Assembly (NCBI GenBank): GCA_050436805.1
Contig: JBNQGE010000023.1
Span: forward strand, 10,606-74,605
From: Candidatus Saccharimonadota bacterium
GTDB lineage: Bacteria; Patescibacteriota; Saccharimonadia; Saccharimonadales; UBA4665
Direction: 5' to 3'
DNA length: 64,000 nucleotides
Shown here: positions 25,078 to 61,960 of the stretch, piece after piece
Layout: each line of letters starts with the position of its first letter
How positions within the stretch are numbered: position 1 is the stretch's first letter
Program-made: the position numbers and the translations under genes
The notes under the pieces: generated by a model
Seen by the model: the letters and a program-made list of their open reading frames with translations, nothing else
Database searches by the model: none
Told to the model about the DNA's origin: nothing

Positions 25078-25105
25078 TTGACAAATTGGCAAGTTTCCTT
25101 ACAAT
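25078..25105 (+). promoter_or_regulatory. Sigma70-type promoter of leader A
   Basis: TTGACA (25078-83), 16-nt spacer, TACAAT (25100-05). Confidence 0.55.
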
Positions 25106-25111
25106 ATATGA

Positions 25112-25355
25112 CATAGTCATGGTATAAAGCGTTAGAGTTCCAGTCACGATGGAACGAGCTGAGCGTCAAAATACGCTACGGAATCTAAACCGTAAAATAC
25201 AGTAGCCGTTGTCGCAGGAAACTGTGGAGCCGGTACCAAGAGCCTCTGAACGGTAACGTTCACTGGAATAAGGATGGGACCGCGGAAGGTCTTTTTTATT
25301 GCCTTTCGTTCCTTAGTAATCACTACATTAATGCATAATTAATACTAAGGATACT
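25112..25355 (+). promoter_or_regulatory. T-box riboswitch leader A: translational (SD-sequestering) type, predicted tRNA-His specific
   Basis: - Short Stem I: GUUCCA-[GUCACGA]-UGGAAC (25137-55), with CAC in the terminal loop.
- T-box core: AAGGA / 7-nt bulge UGGGACC / GCGGAAGG (25270-89), pairing with CCUUUCGU/UCCUU (25302-14).
- Alternative helix: UCCUUAGUA (25310-18) with UACUAAGGA (25343-51), which buries the SD 4 nt before ATG 25356.
- Support: covariation with leader B. Confidence 0.7.
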
Positions 25356-26030
25356 ATGGAAAATTATCTTACTTCTCGTAAAATTCTCACGTATGATGAC
25401 CTAAAAGCTCCCGAGTCTGGCACGAGTTCAGAGCCGCTTGTCGATGTTCGAACATATGACCCGCGAATTGTGGCGCAATACATCAAGGACGACATGCGCA
25501 AATATACCGGTGATCAGATTTACGTGCGAGATACACTTGCACAAAAGCTCGGTAACGTTAGTGCTGAACTTGCTGCATCAAATTTACGTCTTAAGGTTGT
25601 GTATGGCTATCGACACCCCGAGGTGCAGCAAGCATATTTCTCAAAACGACAAACAGAGATCCTTACCGAATTTCCCGATCTTTCGGGTGACGACTTAGAG
25701 CGATACACACACAACTTTGTTGCCGTTCCTGATGTAGCTGGCCACCCGGCAGGTGCAGCTGTGGATCTCACGATTATCGACATGTCCGGTGATGACCTAG
25801 ACATGGGAACGGGTATCGCCGACTACAGTGATCCGCAGCTCATTCGCACCTTTGATTCGCGCCTTTCTAATCAACAGCAAAATAATCGTTTAGTTCTGCA
25901 CGATCTGATGATAGACCAAGGCTTTGCACCATTTTATGGAGAATGGTGGCACTTTTCGTATGGCGACCGAGAATGGGCAGCCTTTAACCATAAAAAAACA
26001 GCACGTTACTGTGCTGTCGAATTAACGTAG
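25356..26030 (+). CDS. M15-family D-Ala-D-Ala dipeptidase-like (VanX/DdpX-like) metallopeptidase
   Basis: YGYRHPEVQQ.., ..VPDVAGHPAGAAVDLTI.. (SxHxxGxAxD-like) and ..GEWWHFSYGD. Confidence 0.7.
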   Translation: MENYLTSRKILTYDDLKAPESGTSSEPLVDVRTYDPRIVAQYIKDDMRKYTGDQIYVRDTLAQKLGNVSAELAASNLRLKVVYGYRHPEVQQAYFSKRQTEILTEFPDLSGDDLERYTHNFVAVPDVAGHPAGAAVDLTIIDMSGDDLDMGTGIADYSDPQLIRTFDSRLSNQQQNNRLVLHDLMIDQGFAPFYGEWWHFSYGDREWAAFNHKKTARYCAVELT

Positions 26031-26039
26031 TAAGGTCAG

Positions 26040-26083
26040 GTGGAGGCTACTCGGTAAGTGCTTGTAGCACGAGTAGCCTCCAC
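26040..26083. terminator. Perfect 14-bp hairpin between convergent genes (no U-tract)
   Basis: GTGGAGGCTACTCG-(16 nt)-CGAGTAGCCTCCAC. Confidence 0.45.
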
Positions 26084-26117
26084 ATGGCGAAAGGTTAGCG
26101 GTGTCCTGCGGGACGGA

Positions 26118-26711
26118 TCAGGACGGAAGCTGGGTAAGCGCGTCGGCGATGTCACCGAAGAGGTAGACCCGCTGTGTGCTCTCGGACCCATTGACGACCA
26201 CCTGGTCGGTGTCGCCCACGTTCTGTAGCTCGGGGATCTCCTGGGCACCGATCTTGCGGTACAGGTGGATCGAGTTCGAACCCATCGCGGCAGTACGGAA
26301 CGCGTAGTGCATGTCGCCGCGATGGCAGATGGTGAGCATCCGATGGCGGACCAGCTCGTAGGCGATACCACGACCGCGATGGGTGTTAATCACGCCCAGC
26401 TCAGACATGTACCAGGTCTTCTGCAGGTCTCCGGTGTAGTGCTCCGAATCGCTGAGAAACCTCTGCACCTCGTCCGGCGCCTTGAGAACAGGCAGGGCGC
26501 AGCCGAAGCCGACGACCTTTTCGTTCTCGATTGCCAGGATGACGATGCCGTCCTCGACGTGAGGGTGCCAGACGTGGTCAAGCACGTCGTCGTCGCTGTA
26601 CTGCTCGTTGTAGGGTGGACCGCCGAAAGCCTCCTGGTAGGCCCGAATGAAGCCGAGGCGGTCACTGGGAAGGGTGGTTTCGTCGCTGAGAACAGGCAGA
26701 TACCTGGTCAA
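26118..26711 (-). CDS. GNAT-family N-acetyltransferase (GC-rich)
   Basis: The acetyl-CoA motif-A region ..LGVINTHRGRGIAYELV.. is present. The gene overlaps the upstream gene by 4 nt. Confidence 0.65.
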   Translation of the reverse strand: MTRYLPVLSDETTLPSDRLGFIRAYQEAFGGPPYNEQYSDDDVLDHVWHPHVEDGIVILAIENEKVVGFGCALPVLKAPDEVQRFLSDSEHYTGDLQKTWYMSELGVINTHRGRGIAYELVRHRMLTICHRGDMHYAFRTAAMGSNSIHLYRKIGAQEIPELQNVGDTDQVVVNGSESTQRVYLFGDIADALTQLPS

Positions 26712-27466
26712 CGTACGACCTCCATTTCGCTCTGCAGGACGACAACGTCGTCACTGATGGTTGCCTTGATGGACTTGCCGGTGGGCTGGACGATGGATTG
26801 CACGCCCGTAACACGACCAACAGCGATGGTTCCAGACCCACACGATTCTTCGTAGAAGAACGTGTCGATGGCGCGGACCCAGACGACCGGGTGCATCCTG
26901 ATAGAATCACCTACGCGTTCGAACCACACCACGCCGACAGCATCGCGCGTGTCAAGGCTGAACTGCGTCATGATGTCACGGTGAGCAGTCTTGTACGTCG
27001 ACGGGTCAGACGGGAAGTCACCTTCGATCACGACGTGCACAATGCCGCCGAGGTCGACGATGTCAGCCAGCTGACCGTTTACGAGCGTGACGTGCTCGAC
27101 GTCAGTCGGCATGCCCGGGAATTCGCAGCGAACGTCGTAGAACTTGGCGTTCTGCTTGGCGACGACAGCGTGAACCACACCTTCGAAACCCGAGACCGTG
27201 AACGACAGATCGTTCAGGCCAAAGTGCTCCGAAAAAAGCAGTGCGGCAGCGCGCGTGGCGTTGCCACAGAACTCGCCACCGGCCATCTCGAAGTGGTGGT
27301 CGTTCAGGACCAGAAAGCCTGCCTGTTCGGCACCGTCCCGTTCCATGCTCTCGCCAAGCGCCTTGCCATCGTGCTCGTACTGAGCGCGGGGCAGGGGTTC
27401 TTCGATGATGCGGATGGCTGTTCCGTTACCACCTGCGGCGGTAACCAACGTGTCATGTGGGCTCAC
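26708..27466 (-). CDS. DapF-family (PLP-independent, two-Cys) amino-acid epimerase/racemase-like protein (GC-rich)
   Basis: GGNGT near the N-terminus, then MAGGEFCGNATR and EESCGSGT. These positions match the two catalytic Cys motifs of diaminopimelate-epimerase-fold enzymes. Confidence 0.5.
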   Translation of the reverse strand: MSPHDTLVTAAGGNGTAIRIIEEPLPRAQYEHDGKALGESMERDGAEQAGFLVLNDHHFEMAGGEFCGNATRAAALLFSEHFGLNDLSFTVSGFEGVVHAVVAKQNAKFYDVRCEFPGMPTDVEHVTLVNGQLADIVDLGGIVHVVIEGDFPSDPSTYKTAHRDIMTQFSLDTRDAVGVVWFERVGDSIRMHPVVWVRAIDTFFYEESCGSGTIAVGRVTGVQSIVQPTGKSIKATISDDVVVLQSEMEVVR

Positions 27467-27751
27467 GATCGTGCTCCTAACTTTTTTGTCTTGATTTGGC
27501 TAACCTAGCCGCCGTAATTTTAGCATGGATGTCAATGCATACACAAGCATAGGGGTTTTCCAAAATACTGCCCAGCTTACGCTCATTTTATAATTCCTAT
27601 AAGTATATACTAATGGCATATCTGCGCTATTGTAATTGTCGTAAATTTGACTTATACCCATTTTAATTTATAATTTCGCGCATGGTTCATTGAGTCAACC
27701 GACTCAGTACATTGAGAACCATAGCAGATTGAGAGAGGAACAAACACAGTC

Positions 27752-29071
27752 ATGGCACAGGTACAGGCCCGCACCGCGAGTGGACTCGTAGAGTACACCC
27801 CTGCGGAACAGCTCGAATTCAACCGCCTCATGGAGATCATCCGTGAGGTCTACGAACGATACGGCTTCGCGCCGATCGACACCACGGTGCTTGAACTGTC
27901 CGAGGTGCTCCTTGCCAAGGACGCCGGCGAGACGAGCAAAGAGGTCTACCGCTTCCAGCGGAACAACGACCCCGAAGGCACCGACTTCACGATGCGCTTC
28001 GACCTCACCGTACCCCTGGCACGCTACGTCGCGCAGAACGAATCCAAGCTGGTCTTCCCGTTCAGCCGTTACGCCTTCGGCAAGGTCTACCGTGCAGAAC
28101 GCGCACAGGCCGGTAGGTTCAGGGAGTTCTGGCAATGCGACATCGACACCATCGGCAGCGACAGTCCGATGACCGATGCACAGTTCCCGGCGGTCATCAA
28201 CGAGATCTTCGAACGCTTCGGCTTCGGTGAGTTCACCATCCGTCTGAACAACCGCATGGTTCTCAACGGGTTCTTCGAAGGCATCGGCCTCAAAGACTCG
28301 GCAGCCAACGTGCTCCGAGTCGTCGACAAGATGGAGAAGATCTCGCAAGACGAGTTCGTCGATGAGCTGCAGAGGCTCGGCCTCAACGACAAGCAGGTGG
28401 ACCAGGTCCTCAACTTCACCGCGATCAGCGGTGATAACGACGAGGTCCTCGCCCAGCTGGAAGGCCTGAGCATCAGCAACGGTACTCTCACCGAGGGCAT
28501 CGCCAAGCTCAAGAGCGTCATCCAAGCCCTGCGCGTGATGGAGGTACCCGAGCGTCGGTTCAAGATCGACCTAAAGATAGCCCGAGGGCTGGACTACTAC
28601 ACGGGTACCGTGTACGAGACCGTGCTCAACGACTACCCGCAGGTCGGCAGCGTCTGCTCCGGCGGCCGCTACGACGATCTGGCAGGCCTGTACACCAAGA
28701 CCAGCCTGCCCGGCGTCGGCATCTCCATCGGCCTGACGCGCCTGTTCTACGCGCTCAGCAAGCTCGGCGTCATCAAGGCCGAGGCTCAGTCTCCGGCGCG
28801 CGTGATGGTCATGCCATTCAGCGCCGAGCAGTTCGACGTGGCGCTCAACGTTGCCGCGACGGTTCGCAAGGCCGGTATCAACACCGTGTTCTACGGTGAA
28901 CCGGGCAAGGTACAGAAGAAGATGCGCTACGCCGACAAGATGGGATTCACCTACGTGGTCCAGATCGGAGCACGCGAAGCCGAGAACGGCGAGGCAACCA
29001 TCAAGGACATGGCCAATGGTGGAGTCACCACAATCGCCCTCGGCGACCTGGTGGAGTTCATCTCCAAGTAA
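27752..29071 (+). CDS. hisS: Histidine--tRNA ligase
   Basis: Class II motifs (..KVYRAERAQAGRFREFWQCDID.., RGLDYYTG, SGGRYDDL) plus a C-terminal anticodon-binding domain. Codon usage is markedly GC3-rich. Confidence 0.9.
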   Translation: MAQVQARTASGLVEYTPAEQLEFNRLMEIIREVYERYGFAPIDTTVLELSEVLLAKDAGETSKEVYRFQRNNDPEGTDFTMRFDLTVPLARYVAQNESKLVFPFSRYAFGKVYRAERAQAGRFREFWQCDIDTIGSDSPMTDAQFPAVINEIFERFGFGEFTIRLNNRMVLNGFFEGIGLKDSAANVLRVVDKMEKISQDEFVDELQRLGLNDKQVDQVLNFTAISGDNDEVLAQLEGLSISNGTLTEGIAKLKSVIQALRVMEVPERRFKIDLKIARGLDYYTGTVYETVLNDYPQVGSVCSGGRYDDLAGLYTKTSLPGVGISIGLTRLFYALSKLGVIKAEAQSPARVMVMPFSAEQFDVALNVAATVRKAGINTVFYGEPGKVQKKMRYADKMGFTYVVQIGAREAENGEATIKDMANGGVTTIALGDLVEFISK

Positions 29072-29111
29072 CACTCGTTCGTCACGAAAGTGACACCATC
29101 TCCACTCTGCG

Positions 29112-29161
29112 CTCGGGAAGGGTGACATGATGCAGCAATGCGTCACACATTCCTTCCCGAG
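29112..29161. terminator. Long hairpin between convergent hisS and the HAD gene
   Basis: CTCGGGAAGG...CCTTCCCGAG (10 bp) enclosing an inner GTGAC/GTCAC helix. Confidence 0.45.
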
Positions 29162-29162
29162 T

Positions 29163-30065
29163 TCAGACAGTCTTATTTTGCCCCTCACTAAGAGGGGCAT
29201 TTTTTATACGTCCTAAATAGTCTGCAAAATCACGCGGCTCAACACGGTCAATGTGTGCCGGGAAGATGCTTGCATCCACGTTAGGGTTGCGGACTACTAC
29301 CGCCTTGATCCCCTCAATACTAAGCATGCCTAGGTCTGGTAGACTATCGCCGCCTACCAATATTGCTTCGCGGCGCAAACCGAGTATCGAAGCGATGCGC
29401 AATACGGCGGCACTTTTGTCAGCATTGGCTGGCAAAAAATCCAAGGTCTTAGTACCCGAAAAGCGGGTCACATGAGTCGTAAGTGACACGTCTTTTGTGA
29501 CTGGAGTATCTGTGTTTCGAAACTTAACCGCAACCATGCCTGGCTGCGCGTCTTCTATAGCACGAGCAAGCGAGTTGATAGGCCCGCACCGTGTTATGCC
29601 AGCCTCCGTGTTTTGTGACTGGTTCCCATGCTGTGAGGAAGATGGAAACCACAAGGTGCGTGGCTGTGCAGGATATTGACCATAAAAAGCAACGCGCAAA
29701 AAGGGCAGATCACTAATAAGTGACATGAGCTCAGTTTGTTCATGTAAGCTCAACGCCGTATGGTGAACGCTTTTATAGCACGATGCATCAGTGTAGTCGG
29801 TGCTTGTCACAAGCTGAGTCCCGTACTCAAGCCCTACCGGAAGTCCAGCACTCGGCACAAGCTCAGGATTTTTGCGAACTACATCTTGGTATAGGCCAAC
29901 GCCCCGAGCAGTTACTTCCGTAAAAGAAAATCGACGATGTTCGGGGTCGAGCACGTATGAAAGTCCGTCATGCAGGACGTGAGTGCCTGAGGCAACTAGT
30001 GTTCTATCAATATCAAAAAATGCAGCCTCAACGTCGGGCATACTCTGTAATTCTTTTTCTGTCAT
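29163..30065 (-). CDS. HAD-superfamily (Cof-like) phosphatase
   Basis: Motif I FFDIDRTLV and motif IV GGDSLPDLGM. Confidence 0.6.
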   Translation of the reverse strand: MTEKELQSMPDVEAAFFDIDRTLVASGTHVLHDGLSYVLDPEHRRFSFTEVTARGVGLYQDVVRKNPELVPSAGLPVGLEYGTQLVTSTDYTDASCYKSVHHTALSLHEQTELMSLISDLPFLRVAFYGQYPAQPRTLWFPSSSQHGNQSQNTEAGITRCGPINSLARAIEDAQPGMVAVKFRNTDTPVTKDVSLTTHVTRFSGTKTLDFLPANADKSAAVLRIASILGLRREAILVGGDSLPDLGMLSIEGIKAVVVRNPNVDASIFPAHIDRVEPRDFADYLGRIKNAPLSEGQNKTV

Positions 30066-30109: not shown

Positions 30110-30139
30110 TTGACAATGTCGGTGGAAGTTTCCTAGAAT
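30110..30139 (+). promoter_or_regulatory. Sigma70-type promoter of leader B
   Basis: TTGACA (30110-15), 18-nt spacer, TAGAAT (30134-39). Confidence 0.5.
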
Positions 30140-30145
30140 TAGTGT

Positions 30146-30375
30146 AAAGCGTTAGAGTTCCGGTCACGACGGAGCAAGCTGAGTGTCAAAATGCACTACG
30201 GAAACTAAACCGTAAAATACAGTAGCCGAAATCGCGTTTACGTAGAGCCGGTGCCGAGAGCCCACAGTCAGTAATGGCTATGGGAATAAGGATGGGACCG
30301 CGGAAGGTCTTTTTTATTGCCTTTCGTTCCTTAGATACTATTTTACTAATTTTTTAGTGTATCTAAGGAGTTCTT
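30146..30375 (+). promoter_or_regulatory. T-box riboswitch leader B: translational type, predicted tRNA-His specific
   Basis: - Stem I: GUUCCG-[GUCACGA]-CGGAGC (30157-75).
- T-box core: AAGGA/UGGGACC/GCGGAAGG (30288-307) with CCUUUCGU/UCCUU (30320-32).
- Sequestrator: UCCUUAGAUAC (30328-38) with GUAUCUAAGGA (30359-69), upstream of ATG 30376. Confidence 0.7.
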
Positions 30376-31053
30376 ATGACACGCGAGACCCGTCCTCTCT
30401 GGCCCGAAGCTACTGAAGACATGCAAAATGCTGCTGAACTATTTGAACAGTTTAAGCGTACAAAAACAAAAATTGCTATTCAAAAAGATGGCGAACTAAC
30501 TGACGTCTCTCGGGCTATTCTTGCCGACGTTTTTGATATCGTTGTACCAGCCAAAGATCCCAAGGATCGTCGACTGGTCTCTGTCTCAGAAGACGGTGAA
30601 TACGGTTTTGTATACGCCCGTAACAAGGGCATCTGCGAACTAGTCGCAAACGGCGCCGTGGATTTGGCGGTTGTAGGTACCGATAGATTAATCGAAGATC
30701 AAGCCGAAGACCGTGTGGATATTGTGGCATCCTACAAAGATGCATACTCCTGGCCGCTTGTGCTGGCGACACCCATAGGCAGTGGTATCGAAACGCCTCA
30801 GCAGATACGGCGCATAGCGACACAGTACCCAGTCATTACCCAGCGCTATTTTGAGACCATGGGGATAGAAGAGATCGACATTATTCAGACTGTCGGCGGC
30901 ACCGAATTATATCCGTACCTTGACTATAATGGACCCATCGACGCTGTTGTTGACATGTCAGTAAGCGGCCAATCGCTGGCCGCCCACAACCTAACTCCAT
31001 GGACGCCAATTATTGGTGACGTTTATCCGGTGCTTATCCAGGCTCAGAAGTAA
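30376..31053 (+). CDS. hisG: ATP phosphoribosyltransferase, short (HisG-S) form
   Basis: 225 aa. KIAIQKDGEL, GAVDLAVVGTDRLIE, RIATQYPVITQRYFE and GGTELYP..DAVVDMSVSGQSLAAHNL align with HisG blocks as I remember them (for example the Thermotoga enzyme). Confidence 0.65.
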   Translation: MTRETRPLWPEATEDMQNAAELFEQFKRTKTKIAIQKDGELTDVSRAILADVFDIVVPAKDPKDRRLVSVSEDGEYGFVYARNKGICELVANGAVDLAVVGTDRLIEDQAEDRVDIVASYKDAYSWPLVLATPIGSGIETPQQIRRIATQYPVITQRYFETMGIEEIDIIQTVGGTELYPYLDYNGPIDAVVDMSVSGQSLAAHNLTPWTPIIGDVYPVLIQAQK

Positions 31054-61374: not shown

Positions 61375-61489
61375 AATTTTCCCGTTTCGCCCTTTTTAGG
61401 CTCATCGGAATGATTACACAATCATTGACGGGGGTCGAGGGGACGGAGATCTTTAAAAGATAGTTCTCCGTCCCGAGGAGTGGTGCTGG

Positions 61490-61960
61490 TCAGCGAAGGT
61501 AGCTGTAGGCCATAATGGCGTCAGCGTGATCTCTTTCGAGGGGGCCATCTGGGTCAGCTTCACTGCGGTGTAGCATAACACCCTCCTGGTCCGTCGCGGA
61601 CTCAGCAGTATGTTCAGCAGGCCGAGTCCTAACGTAAAAGTACATGCCTTGTGTAGCGGGAACGCCCAAGACTTCGGCAACCTTTGCGTCCACCTCGAGG
61701 ATAAGTCGGCCGAACTGATTCATGTCGACGATCATAGCACTGAAGAGAGCGTCGTTGATCACAACCTCCATCTTGGGGTAGTCGGTCACCTCCAGATCGA
61801 TGTCATGGTCGCGCCAGCATCCATAGAAGTAGGTGCTGAACTCCTGGAAGAGCGTGCTGAGATCGATGCGGTCGATGATGACCTCGGCCTCGATGAACTG
61901 GATGGCTCCTTCGAAGACGAAACCCTCCGGCAATTGCAACGTGAATGACATGGGTGCCAC
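61490..61960 (-). CDS. GC-rich hypothetical acidic protein inserted between nusG and rplK
   Basis: 156-aa ORF on the opposite strand whose composition is visibly GC-richer than its flanks. Confidence 0.5.
   Translation of the reverse strand: MAPMSFTLQLPEGFVFEGAIQFIEAEVIIDRIDLSTLFQEFSTYFYGCWRDHDIDLEVTDYPKMEVVINDALFSAMIVDMNQFGRLILEVDAKVAEVLGVPATQGMYFYVRTRPAEHTAESATDQEGVMLHRSEADPDGPLERDHADAIMAYSYLR

Follow-up and report, generated by a model that had tools for sequence, protein, structure and literature searches.

Upstream of a gene for a VanX-like zinc dipeptidase of peptidase family M15, a 64,000-nt stretch of Candidatus Saccharimonadota DNA (contig JBNQGE010000023.1; hereafter the window) carries a leader at 25078–25351 that we read, with a probability of roughly 0.87 on the sequence evidence given below, as a T-box that responds to tRNA-His and controls translation initiation. 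The two parts of this reading differ slightly in strength: that the leader is a tRNA-His T-box is very nearly certain in our judgment, and that the window copy acts on translation is highly probable. The leader belongs to a large family of minimal His T-boxes, apparently not described before, that occurs in Saccharibacteria and related Patescibacteria, and a second copy lies about 5 kb from the first, ahead of hisG.

Architecture of the leader

The elements that an initial annotation of this DNA had named, namely the ultrashort Stem I with its loop, the discriminator helices A1 and A2 with the bulge between them, and the helix that covers the Shine-Dalgarno (SD) sequence, were all recovered at the same positions. 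The leader and the gene it precedes are laid out as follows.

25078–25105 (+): sigma-70-like promoter TTGACA-16-TACAAT, 11 of 12 consensus matches
25128–25160 (+): ultrashort Stem I, base helix AGC/GCU and upper 6-bp helix GUUCCA/UGGAAC
25143–25149: Stem I terminal loop GUCACGA, 7 nt, with the specifier CAC at 25145–25147 and then the purine G at 25148
25162–25177 (+): minimal Stem II of 5 bp, AGCGU/ACGCU, with the A-rich loop CAAAAU and without an S-turn
25179–25203 (+): Stem IIA CGG/CCG, F-box-like CCGUAAA, and pseudoknot IIB (25184–25187 with 25200–25203)
25206–25233 (+): extra element, a CCG/CGG junction helix around the small hairpin GCAG-GAAA-CUGU, absent from the Rfam consensus
25238–25268 (+): purine string AAGAG (RRRxG), Stem III (25243–25266, GUAA loop), then AA
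25270–25314 (+): discriminator (anti-sequestrator), A1/bulge/A2
25310–25351 (+): predicted sequestrator hairpin, UCCUUAGUA (25310–25318) with UACUAAGGA (25343–25351), burying the SD
25356–26030 (+): regulated gene, cytoplasmic M15 (VanX-like) zinc dipeptidase, 224 aa, PF01427 56.3 bits against a cut-off of 27

Nearly every related leader has an aligned TTGAC box like that of the promoter. The base of Stem I holds a K-turn-like GA motif (GUUA bulge, G-A / G-A) of the form AGC-GUUA-GA ... GA-GCU, in which the G and A are invariant, and the layout of the terminal loop, G-U-CAC-G-A, resembles that of an anticodon loop (N-U-CAC-G-N). The distal Stem I platform, with the AG bulge and distal loop on which the tRNA elbow stacks, is missing, and the hairpin ends in the 7-nt specifier loop. 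Within the Stem II loop, AAA is invariant in the 15-sequence alignment described below, and these adenines may make minor-groove contacts. Pseudoknot IIB is weak in the M15 leader, with 2 bp.

In the discriminator, helix A1 is formed by AAGGA (25270–25274) and UCCUU (25310–25314), the 7-nt T-box bulge UGGGACC spans 25275–25281 with the variable base N being G at 25278, and helix A2 is formed by GCGGAAGG (25282–25289) and CCUUUCGU (25302–25309), with a basal G-U wobble between 25282 and 25309 and a U-rich loop. The SD AAGGA occupies 25347–25351, 4 nt ahead of the ATG at 25356.

T-box identity and covariation

The hallmarks of a T-box discriminator are the UGGNACC bulge, the G-U wobble at the base of A2, and the RRRxG string before and AA after Stem III (PMC7583486), and all of them are present and nearly invariant in this family. 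The M15 leader has them as AAGAG-Stem III-AA and AAGGA-UGGGACC-GCGG...CGU-UCCUU, and the wobble occurs in 15 of 15 sequences in one set and 65 of 69 in another. Further T-box features in the leader are the basal GA/K-turn of Stem I, a specifier followed by a purine, and a mutually exclusive sequestrator that uses the 3' strand of A1. Around Stem II the picture is mixed: the IIA/B pseudoknot and CCGUAAA sequence are present and covary, and Stem II itself is reduced to 5 bp with no S-turn sequence.

The Rfam T-box model RF00230, which has a gathering score of 93 bits, aligned at full length (model positions 1–219) to 25123–25316 with 27.7 bits, corresponding to an E-value of 2.5e-4 in a 501-nt search and 0.032 in the whole window. 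In this alignment 76 distal Stem I positions are replaced by 9 nt, the Stem II loop is shortened, and ~32 nt are inserted between the F-box and Stem III, where the extra hairpin is scored as an insertion. A scan of the window at Rfam gathering thresholds returned tRNA-Trp only, the T-box emerging solely in E-value mode. The covariance-model check proposed in the initial annotation gave an end-to-end alignment with a score below the gathering threshold. Relatives scored 42–46 bits with RF00230 or had no match reported, and because the family lies so far under the Rfam threshold, annotation pipelines that rely on it would miss the family. A covariance model built from a 15-sequence alignment of relatives (R1) scored the two window copies at 215 and 208.5 bits and gave 108 matches in the first 100 metagenome loci.

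The identification as a T-box, as originally proposed, is upheld by the full-length, sub-threshold RF00230 alignment together with covariation in Stem I, Stem II, IIA/B, Stem III and A2. An alignment of 15 distinct protein-anchored leaders (A3), on which the T-box architecture was imposed, had standard pairs in 93.8% of its cells, compared with 36–46% when the 3' partners were slid by 1–3 columns, and changes on both sides in 27 of 49 pairs. In 500 column shuffles the observed value was never reached for the percentage of paired cells, for the count of pairs with changes on both sides or for the covariation score, and it was reached once for the count of further pair types. For 80 distinct metagenome sequences, in an alignment fitted to R1, 95.4% of cells were paired against 31–44% after sliding, with compensatory changes in 33 of 45 pairs. 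This covariation backs all 6 pairs of upper Stem I, 5/5 of Stem II (97–99% of cells paired), 4/4 of IIB (GCUA/UAGC and GCAG/CUGC among the variants in relatives), all 6 of upper Stem III, the extra hairpin and A2; A1, IIA and the Stem I base are invariant in A3.

That the likeness to a T-box is accidental, or that the structured leader binds a ligand other than tRNA, could be argued from the sub-threshold Rfam match (27.7 bits; whole-window E 0.03). This explanation would have to accommodate both window copies as well as ~140 relatives that show compensatory changes in the T-box helices, a nearly invariant bulge and G-U wobble, and a bulge that covaries with the discriminator base of the tRNA; we regard it as refuted because of the covariation.

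Specificity for tRNA-His

The proposed reading of CAC in the terminal loop as a histidine specifier is well supported by the invariant CAC-G, the covarying stem that presents it, and the downstream genes hisG, hisS and tRNA-His. CAC followed by G is invariant throughout the protein-anchored set, and so is the GUCACG loop core except in one locus (L024; loci are designated by L numbers), while the closing stem covaries (GUUCC/GGAAC, CCGGA/UCCGG, GCGGA/UCCGC and others). The exceptional loop, UUCACGC, has kept CAC and lost GUC.

The bulge provides the strongest test. Its base N is complementary to base 73 of tRNA-His at 13 of the 13 loci that hold both, as G with C73 in 12 cases and U with A73 in one, which agrees with the pairing of the bulge G with C73 that had been predicted for the window leader. 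L024 has the sole UGGU leader among the 13, and its tRNA-His has A73. At the Saccharibacteria-named loci L013, L029 and L037, tRNA-His has a GUG anticodon and C73, as does the tRNA-His of an unlabelled metagenome contig (L140), which closely resembles that of L037. The complementarity of N and base 73, the CAC-purine sequence and the histidine-related target genes together argue for specificity toward tRNA-His.

Another triplet of GUCACGA might instead be read, namely ACG (Thr), GUC (Val), UCA (Ser) or CGA (Arg). Threonine has in its favor that ACG, with A after it, stands at the loop's 3' end, where a long Stem I usually has its specifier, and that a Saccharibacteria tRNA-Thr(CGU) in L029 has U73, which could wobble with the bulge G. 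However, apart from a few targets without an identification, the downstream genes are hisG, hisS, tRNA-His and histidine-linked genes, and none was recognized as a gene for Thr, Val, Ser or Arg. The covariation of N with base 73 of tRNA-His, the invariant purine after CAC set against a variable base (A, C or U) after ACG, and the loss of GUC at L024 also argue for CAC, and the Ser, Val and Arg tRNAs seen carry G73 or A73. Threonine is thus a very weak rival, contradicted by the regulon, and we consider any triplet other than CAC most improbable.

Among tRNA-His genes at the related loci (L013:8218–8290, L027:9266–9342, L041:4291–4364 and L031:15972–16046) the identity elements vary. The genomic base at −1 in L013 is C, not G, and base 73 is U in L027 and L041 and A in L031 and L024. 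Leaders with a UGGA bulge (L157, L164 and L173) may match the U73 lineages.

Predicted switch and its read-out

The 3' strand of A1 had been proposed to belong to two mutually exclusive helices, one of them with the SD, and comparison of the relatives supports this architecture. Each of the 15 leaders that were folded, of which 13 come from the window or from records labelled Saccharibacteria, has a predicted sequestrator over the SD that is maintained by compensatory changes: the A1 3' strand, UUCCUU plus 2–6 bases, pairs with the SD region as UCCUUAGUA/UACUAAGGA, UCCUUAGAUAC/GUAUCUAAGGA, UUCCUUGGG/CCUGAGGA and others. The canonical ON fold of the window leaders, with A1 and A2, has a predicted energy of −11.8 kcal/mol, and the unconstrained minimum free energy (MFE) fold, which contains the sequestrator, −23.3 kcal/mol for the M15 leader and −30.6 kcal/mol for the hisG leader. 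Since the OFF fold is the more stable, the default state is expected to be OFF and the ligand would have to stabilize ON, as in known T-boxes. As had been noted initially, the U-run lies inside the A2 loop, and in neither window copy is the hairpin that sequesters the SD followed by a U-tract; the read-out is therefore most likely translation initiation.

The model predicts that the Stem I loop presents CAC to the GUG anticodon of tRNA-His, with the K-turn, 5-bp Stem II, IIA/B pseudoknot and extra hairpin forming the rest of the decoding module. The 3' end of uncharged tRNA-His, C73-C-C-A, would pair with UGGG of the bulge and stack on helix A1; this pairing would stabilize the A1/A2 anti-sequestrator, free the SD and permit translation of the dipeptidase. 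With charged tRNA, or none, the more stable fold would prevail, 25310–25318 pairing with 25343–25351 and blocking translation. The second copy would control hisG likewise. Binding of tRNA, sensing of its aminoacylation and translational read-out are all predicted here from the leader's conserved structure.

The U-rich loop of A2 raises the alternative that the T-box acts wholly or partly by transcription attenuation, with a hairpin at 25276–25293 followed by UUUUAUU terminating transcription unless the tRNA 3' end occupies UGGG. This hairpin, GGGACC-GCGGAA-GGUCUU, together with the following TTTTATTGCC, was flagged as terminator-like by a consensus scan and has a predicted energy of −7.1 to −8.4 kcal/mol. 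The A2 loop characteristically opens with GGUCYY and continues as a U-run, and the motif GGGACC..GGUYY with at least four U occurs in 59 of 67 distinct relatives, some of which have a separate terminator. In sister lineages (L044, L097, L122 and L137) the same T-box core is also joined to canonical terminators that end in a U-run, and the leaders at L044, L097 and L137 are clearly transcriptional. Yet the stem is only 6 pairs long and in the window includes two G-U pairs; the M15-controlling leaders L004, L005, L006 and L024 do without the motif; and at L097 it coexists with a separate canonical terminator and so is not needed for termination there. At the point where it would act, moreover, the A1/A2 sensor has not yet been transcribed, so that the state of charging would go unread. 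The MFE fold of the M15 leader hints at another role: the U-run pairs with AAUAAGGA, by which the OFF state would lock the A1 strands in separate hairpins, and the internal GGUCYY/U-run hairpin may therefore be a helper of the OFF state. We consider attenuation quite unlikely for the window copy and favor control of translation initiation.

Several observations weigh against a tRNA-His T-box acting on translation. C73 of tRNA-His is normally paired with G-1, and this pair must open or compete with the bulge. A tRNA gene scan of the window found no tRNA-His, and an exact-match look-up of the M15 protein led only to a 2.6-kb contig, which supplied neither a wider context nor a tRNA-His. An internal hairpin and U-run lie within the discriminator of both copies (25276–25300 and 30296–30318), making a transcriptional component conceivable, and both copies reach only 27.7 bits with RF00230 against the gathering score of 93. 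The distal part of Stem I and the S-turn of Stem II are both missing, which bears on how the tRNA would be held; truncated Stem I variants bind tRNA poorly, or barely at all, without Stem II (PMC7583486).

A second copy ahead of hisG

30110–30375 (+): paralogous His T-box leader, with promoter TTGACA-18-TAGAAT at 30110–30139
30376–31053 (+): hisG, short-form ATP phosphoribosyltransferase, 225 aa, TIGR00070 94.7 bits against a cut-off of 75.75

The core of the second leader spans 30145–30334, with the same loop GUCACGA and bulge UGGGACC, and its predicted sequestrator (30327–30370) covers the SD AAGGAG at 30365–30370. It was found by RF00230 in the whole-window scan as a second match at 30143–30334 with a score equal to that of the first. 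The two leaders are 82% identical, and between them Stem I, Stem II and Stem III as well as the sequestrator show compensatory changes. Scans of the window with RF00230 in E-value mode and with R1 found no T-box besides these two, and none ahead of hisS or the racemase-GNAT operon.

Both the short-form hisG of the window and the hisG of oral TM7 (L017:12433–13314 (−) and others), which is of the long form with a regulatory C-terminal domain, are preceded by a His T-box. No other histidine biosynthesis genes lie near the T-box-controlled hisG, and in oral TM7 it is in an operon with racemase-like and GNAT genes. This apparently orphan ATP phosphoribosyltransferase is present in organisms reported to be without amino-acid biosynthesis.

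Distribution and predicted regulon

A genome scan anchored on the M15 protein, rather than on the RNA, yielded 73 loci. When these were searched by nhmmer with both window leaders as queries, the leader turned up 30 times, spread over 20 loci, 19 of Saccharibacteria type plus L044. Loci with the leader include oral TM7 (HOT-348, Nanosynbacter). Directly behind the leader comes either M15 or hisG (short or long) alone, or the pair hisG-M15, or a LOG-like gene with M15 after it; at L044 it precedes racemase-GNAT-M15. The oral TM7 have two convergent leaders, one for M15 and one, on the opposite strand, for hisG-racemase-GNAT. An iterated nhmmer search that used 32 leaders found no more members at the other M15 loci of Patescibacteria, Chlamydiae and delta-proteobacteria.

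Scanning metagenomes for a pattern drawn from the decoding module added 120 loci. Outside the window, the leader occurs in ~140 places in related genomes and metagenomes. The genes downstream in the metagenome loci, identified by BLAST, were long hisG (36), M15 (29), LOG-like (11), short hisG (5), hisS (3), racemase-like (2) and others (13), the last group including M20 peptidases and AstE/AspA-type deacylases.

In some lineages the T-box stands ahead of a tRNA-His gene. At L097, a transcriptional His T-box (178–365) with a terminator to ~397 is followed by tRNA-His at 407–480 and an M20 peptidase from 530. Terminator-bearing His T-boxes lie directly ahead of a tRNA-His gene also at L081, L114, L141 and L162, with more distant cases at L096, L120, L127, L167 and L170. 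We know of no T-box described as controlling the gene of its own tRNA ligand.

Four elements (L156:3362–3617, L102:126–236, L145:530–640 (−) and one at L179) consist of the decoding module alone, that is, the GUCACGA hairpin, Stem II and IIA/B, followed by a plain terminator and U-run, and have no UGGNACC discriminator; the one at L156 is immediately followed by a tRNA-His gene. They could represent degenerate T-boxes, or else a variant in which the anticodon alone is sensed.

Applied to the protein-anchored loci, R1 added a single unrelated T-box, at L028:6394–6622 (−). It is of a different kind, with a UGGU bulge and a longer Stem I (39.7 bits with R1), and the genes that it precedes are those of a YbdK-like carboxylate-amine ligase and an AstE/AspA-like protein, on a contig that is labelled Gammaproteobacteria and has an M15-racemase pair. 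The L024 contig (JAITJY010000236.1), labelled as a metagenome-assembled genome of Bifidobacteriaceae, carries the T-box with M15, LOG-like, GNAT, racemase-like, hisS and tRNA-His genes, and is probably mis-binned, since this is the full Patescibacteria-type module.

The M15 dipeptidase and its histidine-linked module

26118–26711 (−): GNAT acetyltransferase-family gene, part of a conserved module
26708–27466 (−): histidine-racemase-like gene, DapF-fold, two-Cys, part of the conserved module
27752–29071 (+): hisS, histidine-tRNA ligase, TIGR00442 390 bits against a cut-off of 287

The VanX-like M15 identity assigned to the regulated gene is sound: PF01427 is passed, the zinc and catalytic motifs are in place, with H130, D137, E196, H199 and R86 invariant in 23 homologues, and the best Protein Data Bank (PDB) match is VanX (1r44). 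The protein has no obvious signal peptide. It falls below the cut-offs of both NCBIfam equivalogs, VanX (42.6 bits of 320) and DdpX (66.8 of 176). NCBI lists an identical protein from a Candidatus Saccharibacteria metagenome-assembled genome. More than 1,100 homologues were found, mostly in Saccharibacteria and Patescibacteria; those at most 45% identical to the window protein (Chlamydiae, delta-proteobacteria and others) have neither the leader nor the module.

The GNAT, racemase-like and hisS genes lie between the two leaders. The racemase-like protein contains the cysteine motifs GEFCGNA and ESCGSGT, and its best PDB match is the Fusobacterium nucleatum histidine racemase 9cr6 (E 1e-13); its scores against NCBIfam HisR (74.6 bits, cut-off 400) and CntK (51.3 bits, cut-off 300) are both under the cut-offs. 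The hisS product was considered as a HisZ-like partner of the short HisG, and this was rejected as the primary reading, the cut-off of the hisS equivalog being passed and that of hisZ not. The region that holds the three genes (26001–30000) has a G+C content of 0.56–0.57, against 0.47–0.49 around it, and many long antisense open reading frames (ORFs).

M15 adjoins a racemase-like gene in 37 of the 73 protein-anchored loci, mostly with GNAT too and often with hisS nearby, and tRNA-His accounts for 11 of the 51 tRNA genes within 10 kb of M15 (25 of 85 over all loci). The M15-GNAT-racemase-like module is linked to hisS, tRNA-His or both across many Patescibacteria classes, with the T-box or without it (loci L003–L047, with labels including Saccharibacteria, Parcubacteria, Komeilibacteria and Taylorbacteria). 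In L041 and L046 a tRNA-His gene comes just downstream of M15, and in L027 one lies 59 nt upstream.

A link of the M15 enzyme to histidine, suggested at the outset, gains support from the conserved module beside hisS and tRNA-His and from the M20 and AstE/AspA genes that are also targets of the same T-box. That three families of zinc amidohydrolase (M15, M20 and AstE/AspA) come under one T-box supports the release of histidine from a conjugate, and the VanX-type fold with a racemase-like neighbor points to a substrate that contains D-His. We put it at about even odds that the M15 enzyme frees histidine from a D-His-containing conjugate at histidine shortage. The wider proposal, weaker than the T-box reading itself, is that histidine shortage induces a set of hydrolases that would free histidine from dipeptides or acylated forms, possibly with D-His.

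Far from this region, the window has a match to the Hammerhead type III model at 61379–61434 (−), with 38.3 bits against a threshold of 48.5 and an E-value of 1e-4, in the 3' region of a minus-strand ORF (61490–61960) and just before a terminator hairpin. Its core has CCGAUGAG in place of CUGAUGAG (U4 to C), and it may be inactive or a false positive.

Comparison with known systems

The closest architecture is that of the translational ileS T-boxes of Actinobacteria with a truncated Stem I, which with short or ultrashort Stem I were reportedly described by Sherwood, Grundy and Henkin in 2015. Shared with this group (class II) are the lack of an elbow-binding distal Stem I, a specifier in or near the terminal loop above a K-turn, the IIA/B pseudoknot, the Stem III purine string, UGGNACC, the wobble at the base of A2, sequestration of the SD by the A1 3' strand in the OFF state, and the absence of a terminator. 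The hosts and specifiers differ, Saccharibacteria and Patescibacteria with CAC/His here in contrast to Actinobacteria with AUC/Ile, as do the targets, which are a dipeptidase, hisG and similar genes here and an aminoacyl-tRNA synthetase in the ileS type. Here Stem II amounts to a hairpin of 5 bp and a conserved CAAAAU loop, whereas in the ileS type it is a long S-turn Stem II that docks on the duplex between codon and anticodon. In contrast to the ileS type, the family also has a ~28-nt junction hairpin between the F-box and Stem III and a conserved GGUCYY-U-run in the A2 loop, and the same core is found with true terminators in sister lineages. The likeness to the ileS type that had been drawn initially therefore holds for the truncated Stem I and the SD sequestration, but not for Stem II, which has no S-turn, or for the extra hairpin. 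The structures of the Mycobacterium tuberculosis and Nocardia farcinica ileS T-boxes are reviewed in PMC7583486, and our use of "ultrashort" for Stem I rests on this review.

The glyQS T-box dispenses with one of the two modules that bind the tRNA body, having no Stem II, but it keeps the long Stem I platform, whereas the family described here has neither the platform nor the S-turn. The His T-boxes of Firmicutes, whose comparative genomics was reportedly covered by Vitreschak et al. in 2008 (leaders of hisS and of histidine biosynthesis and transport genes), share the CAC specifier, the tRNA-His ligand, and hisS and hisG-operon targets. In these T-boxes Stem I is long and carries the AG bulge and the distal loop, control is by termination of transcription, and the Rfam threshold is passed. 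We know of no Firmicutes His T-box that controls an M15 dipeptidase or a tRNA gene.

The regulated enzyme shares with VanX and DdpX (MEROPS M15D) the PF01427 domain, the H-x6-D and E-x2-H motifs, a conserved Arg, a cytoplasmic location and a length of ~200–225 aa. Its context is histidine-related (racemase-like, hisS, tRNA-His, hisG), as opposed to the vancomycin resistance or ddp transport context of VanX and DdpX.

Implications for Saccharibacteria

The literature that we searched, which was incomplete, held no report of T-boxes in Saccharibacteria, Patescibacteria, the candidate phyla radiation or TM7, and nothing on Saccharibacteria in connection with ATP phosphoribosyltransferase. The T-boxes described in it come from Firmicutes, Actinobacteria and some further phyla, the candidate phyla radiation not being among them. 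The translational model of TBDB was run only on Actinobacteria and on class I hits with a truncated Stem I (PMC7778990).

Taken as a whole, the proposal of an undescribed minimal class of His T-box, with a histidine-scavenging regulon and autoregulation of tRNA-His, widespread in Saccharibacteria and other Patescibacteria, is a tentative one, to which we give somewhat less than an even chance. If it is true, a specifier hairpin that resembles an anticodon loop would, together with a 5-bp Stem II capped by an A-rich loop and with a junction hairpin of a new kind, recognize tRNA without either of the known body-binding modules. The scavenging system would comprise a VanX-like D-dipeptidase, a histidine racemase, GNAT, M20 and AspA hydrolases, and an orphan hisG, and would allow amino-acid-auxotrophic epibionts to scavenge histidine; in some lineages the riboswitch would govern synthesis of its own ligand.

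A natural T-box with neither the Stem I platform nor the S-turn tests the minimum that an mRNA requires to recognize a tRNA, and its use as a compact part for engineered tRNA sensors is conceivable. For the organisms themselves, the regulon offers a sequence-based handle on the response to histidine shortage in ultra-small, auxotrophic Saccharibacteria, including the human oral TM7, and it gives the conserved, uncharacterized module of M15, GNAT and histidine-racemase-like protein a testable histidine-linked role.

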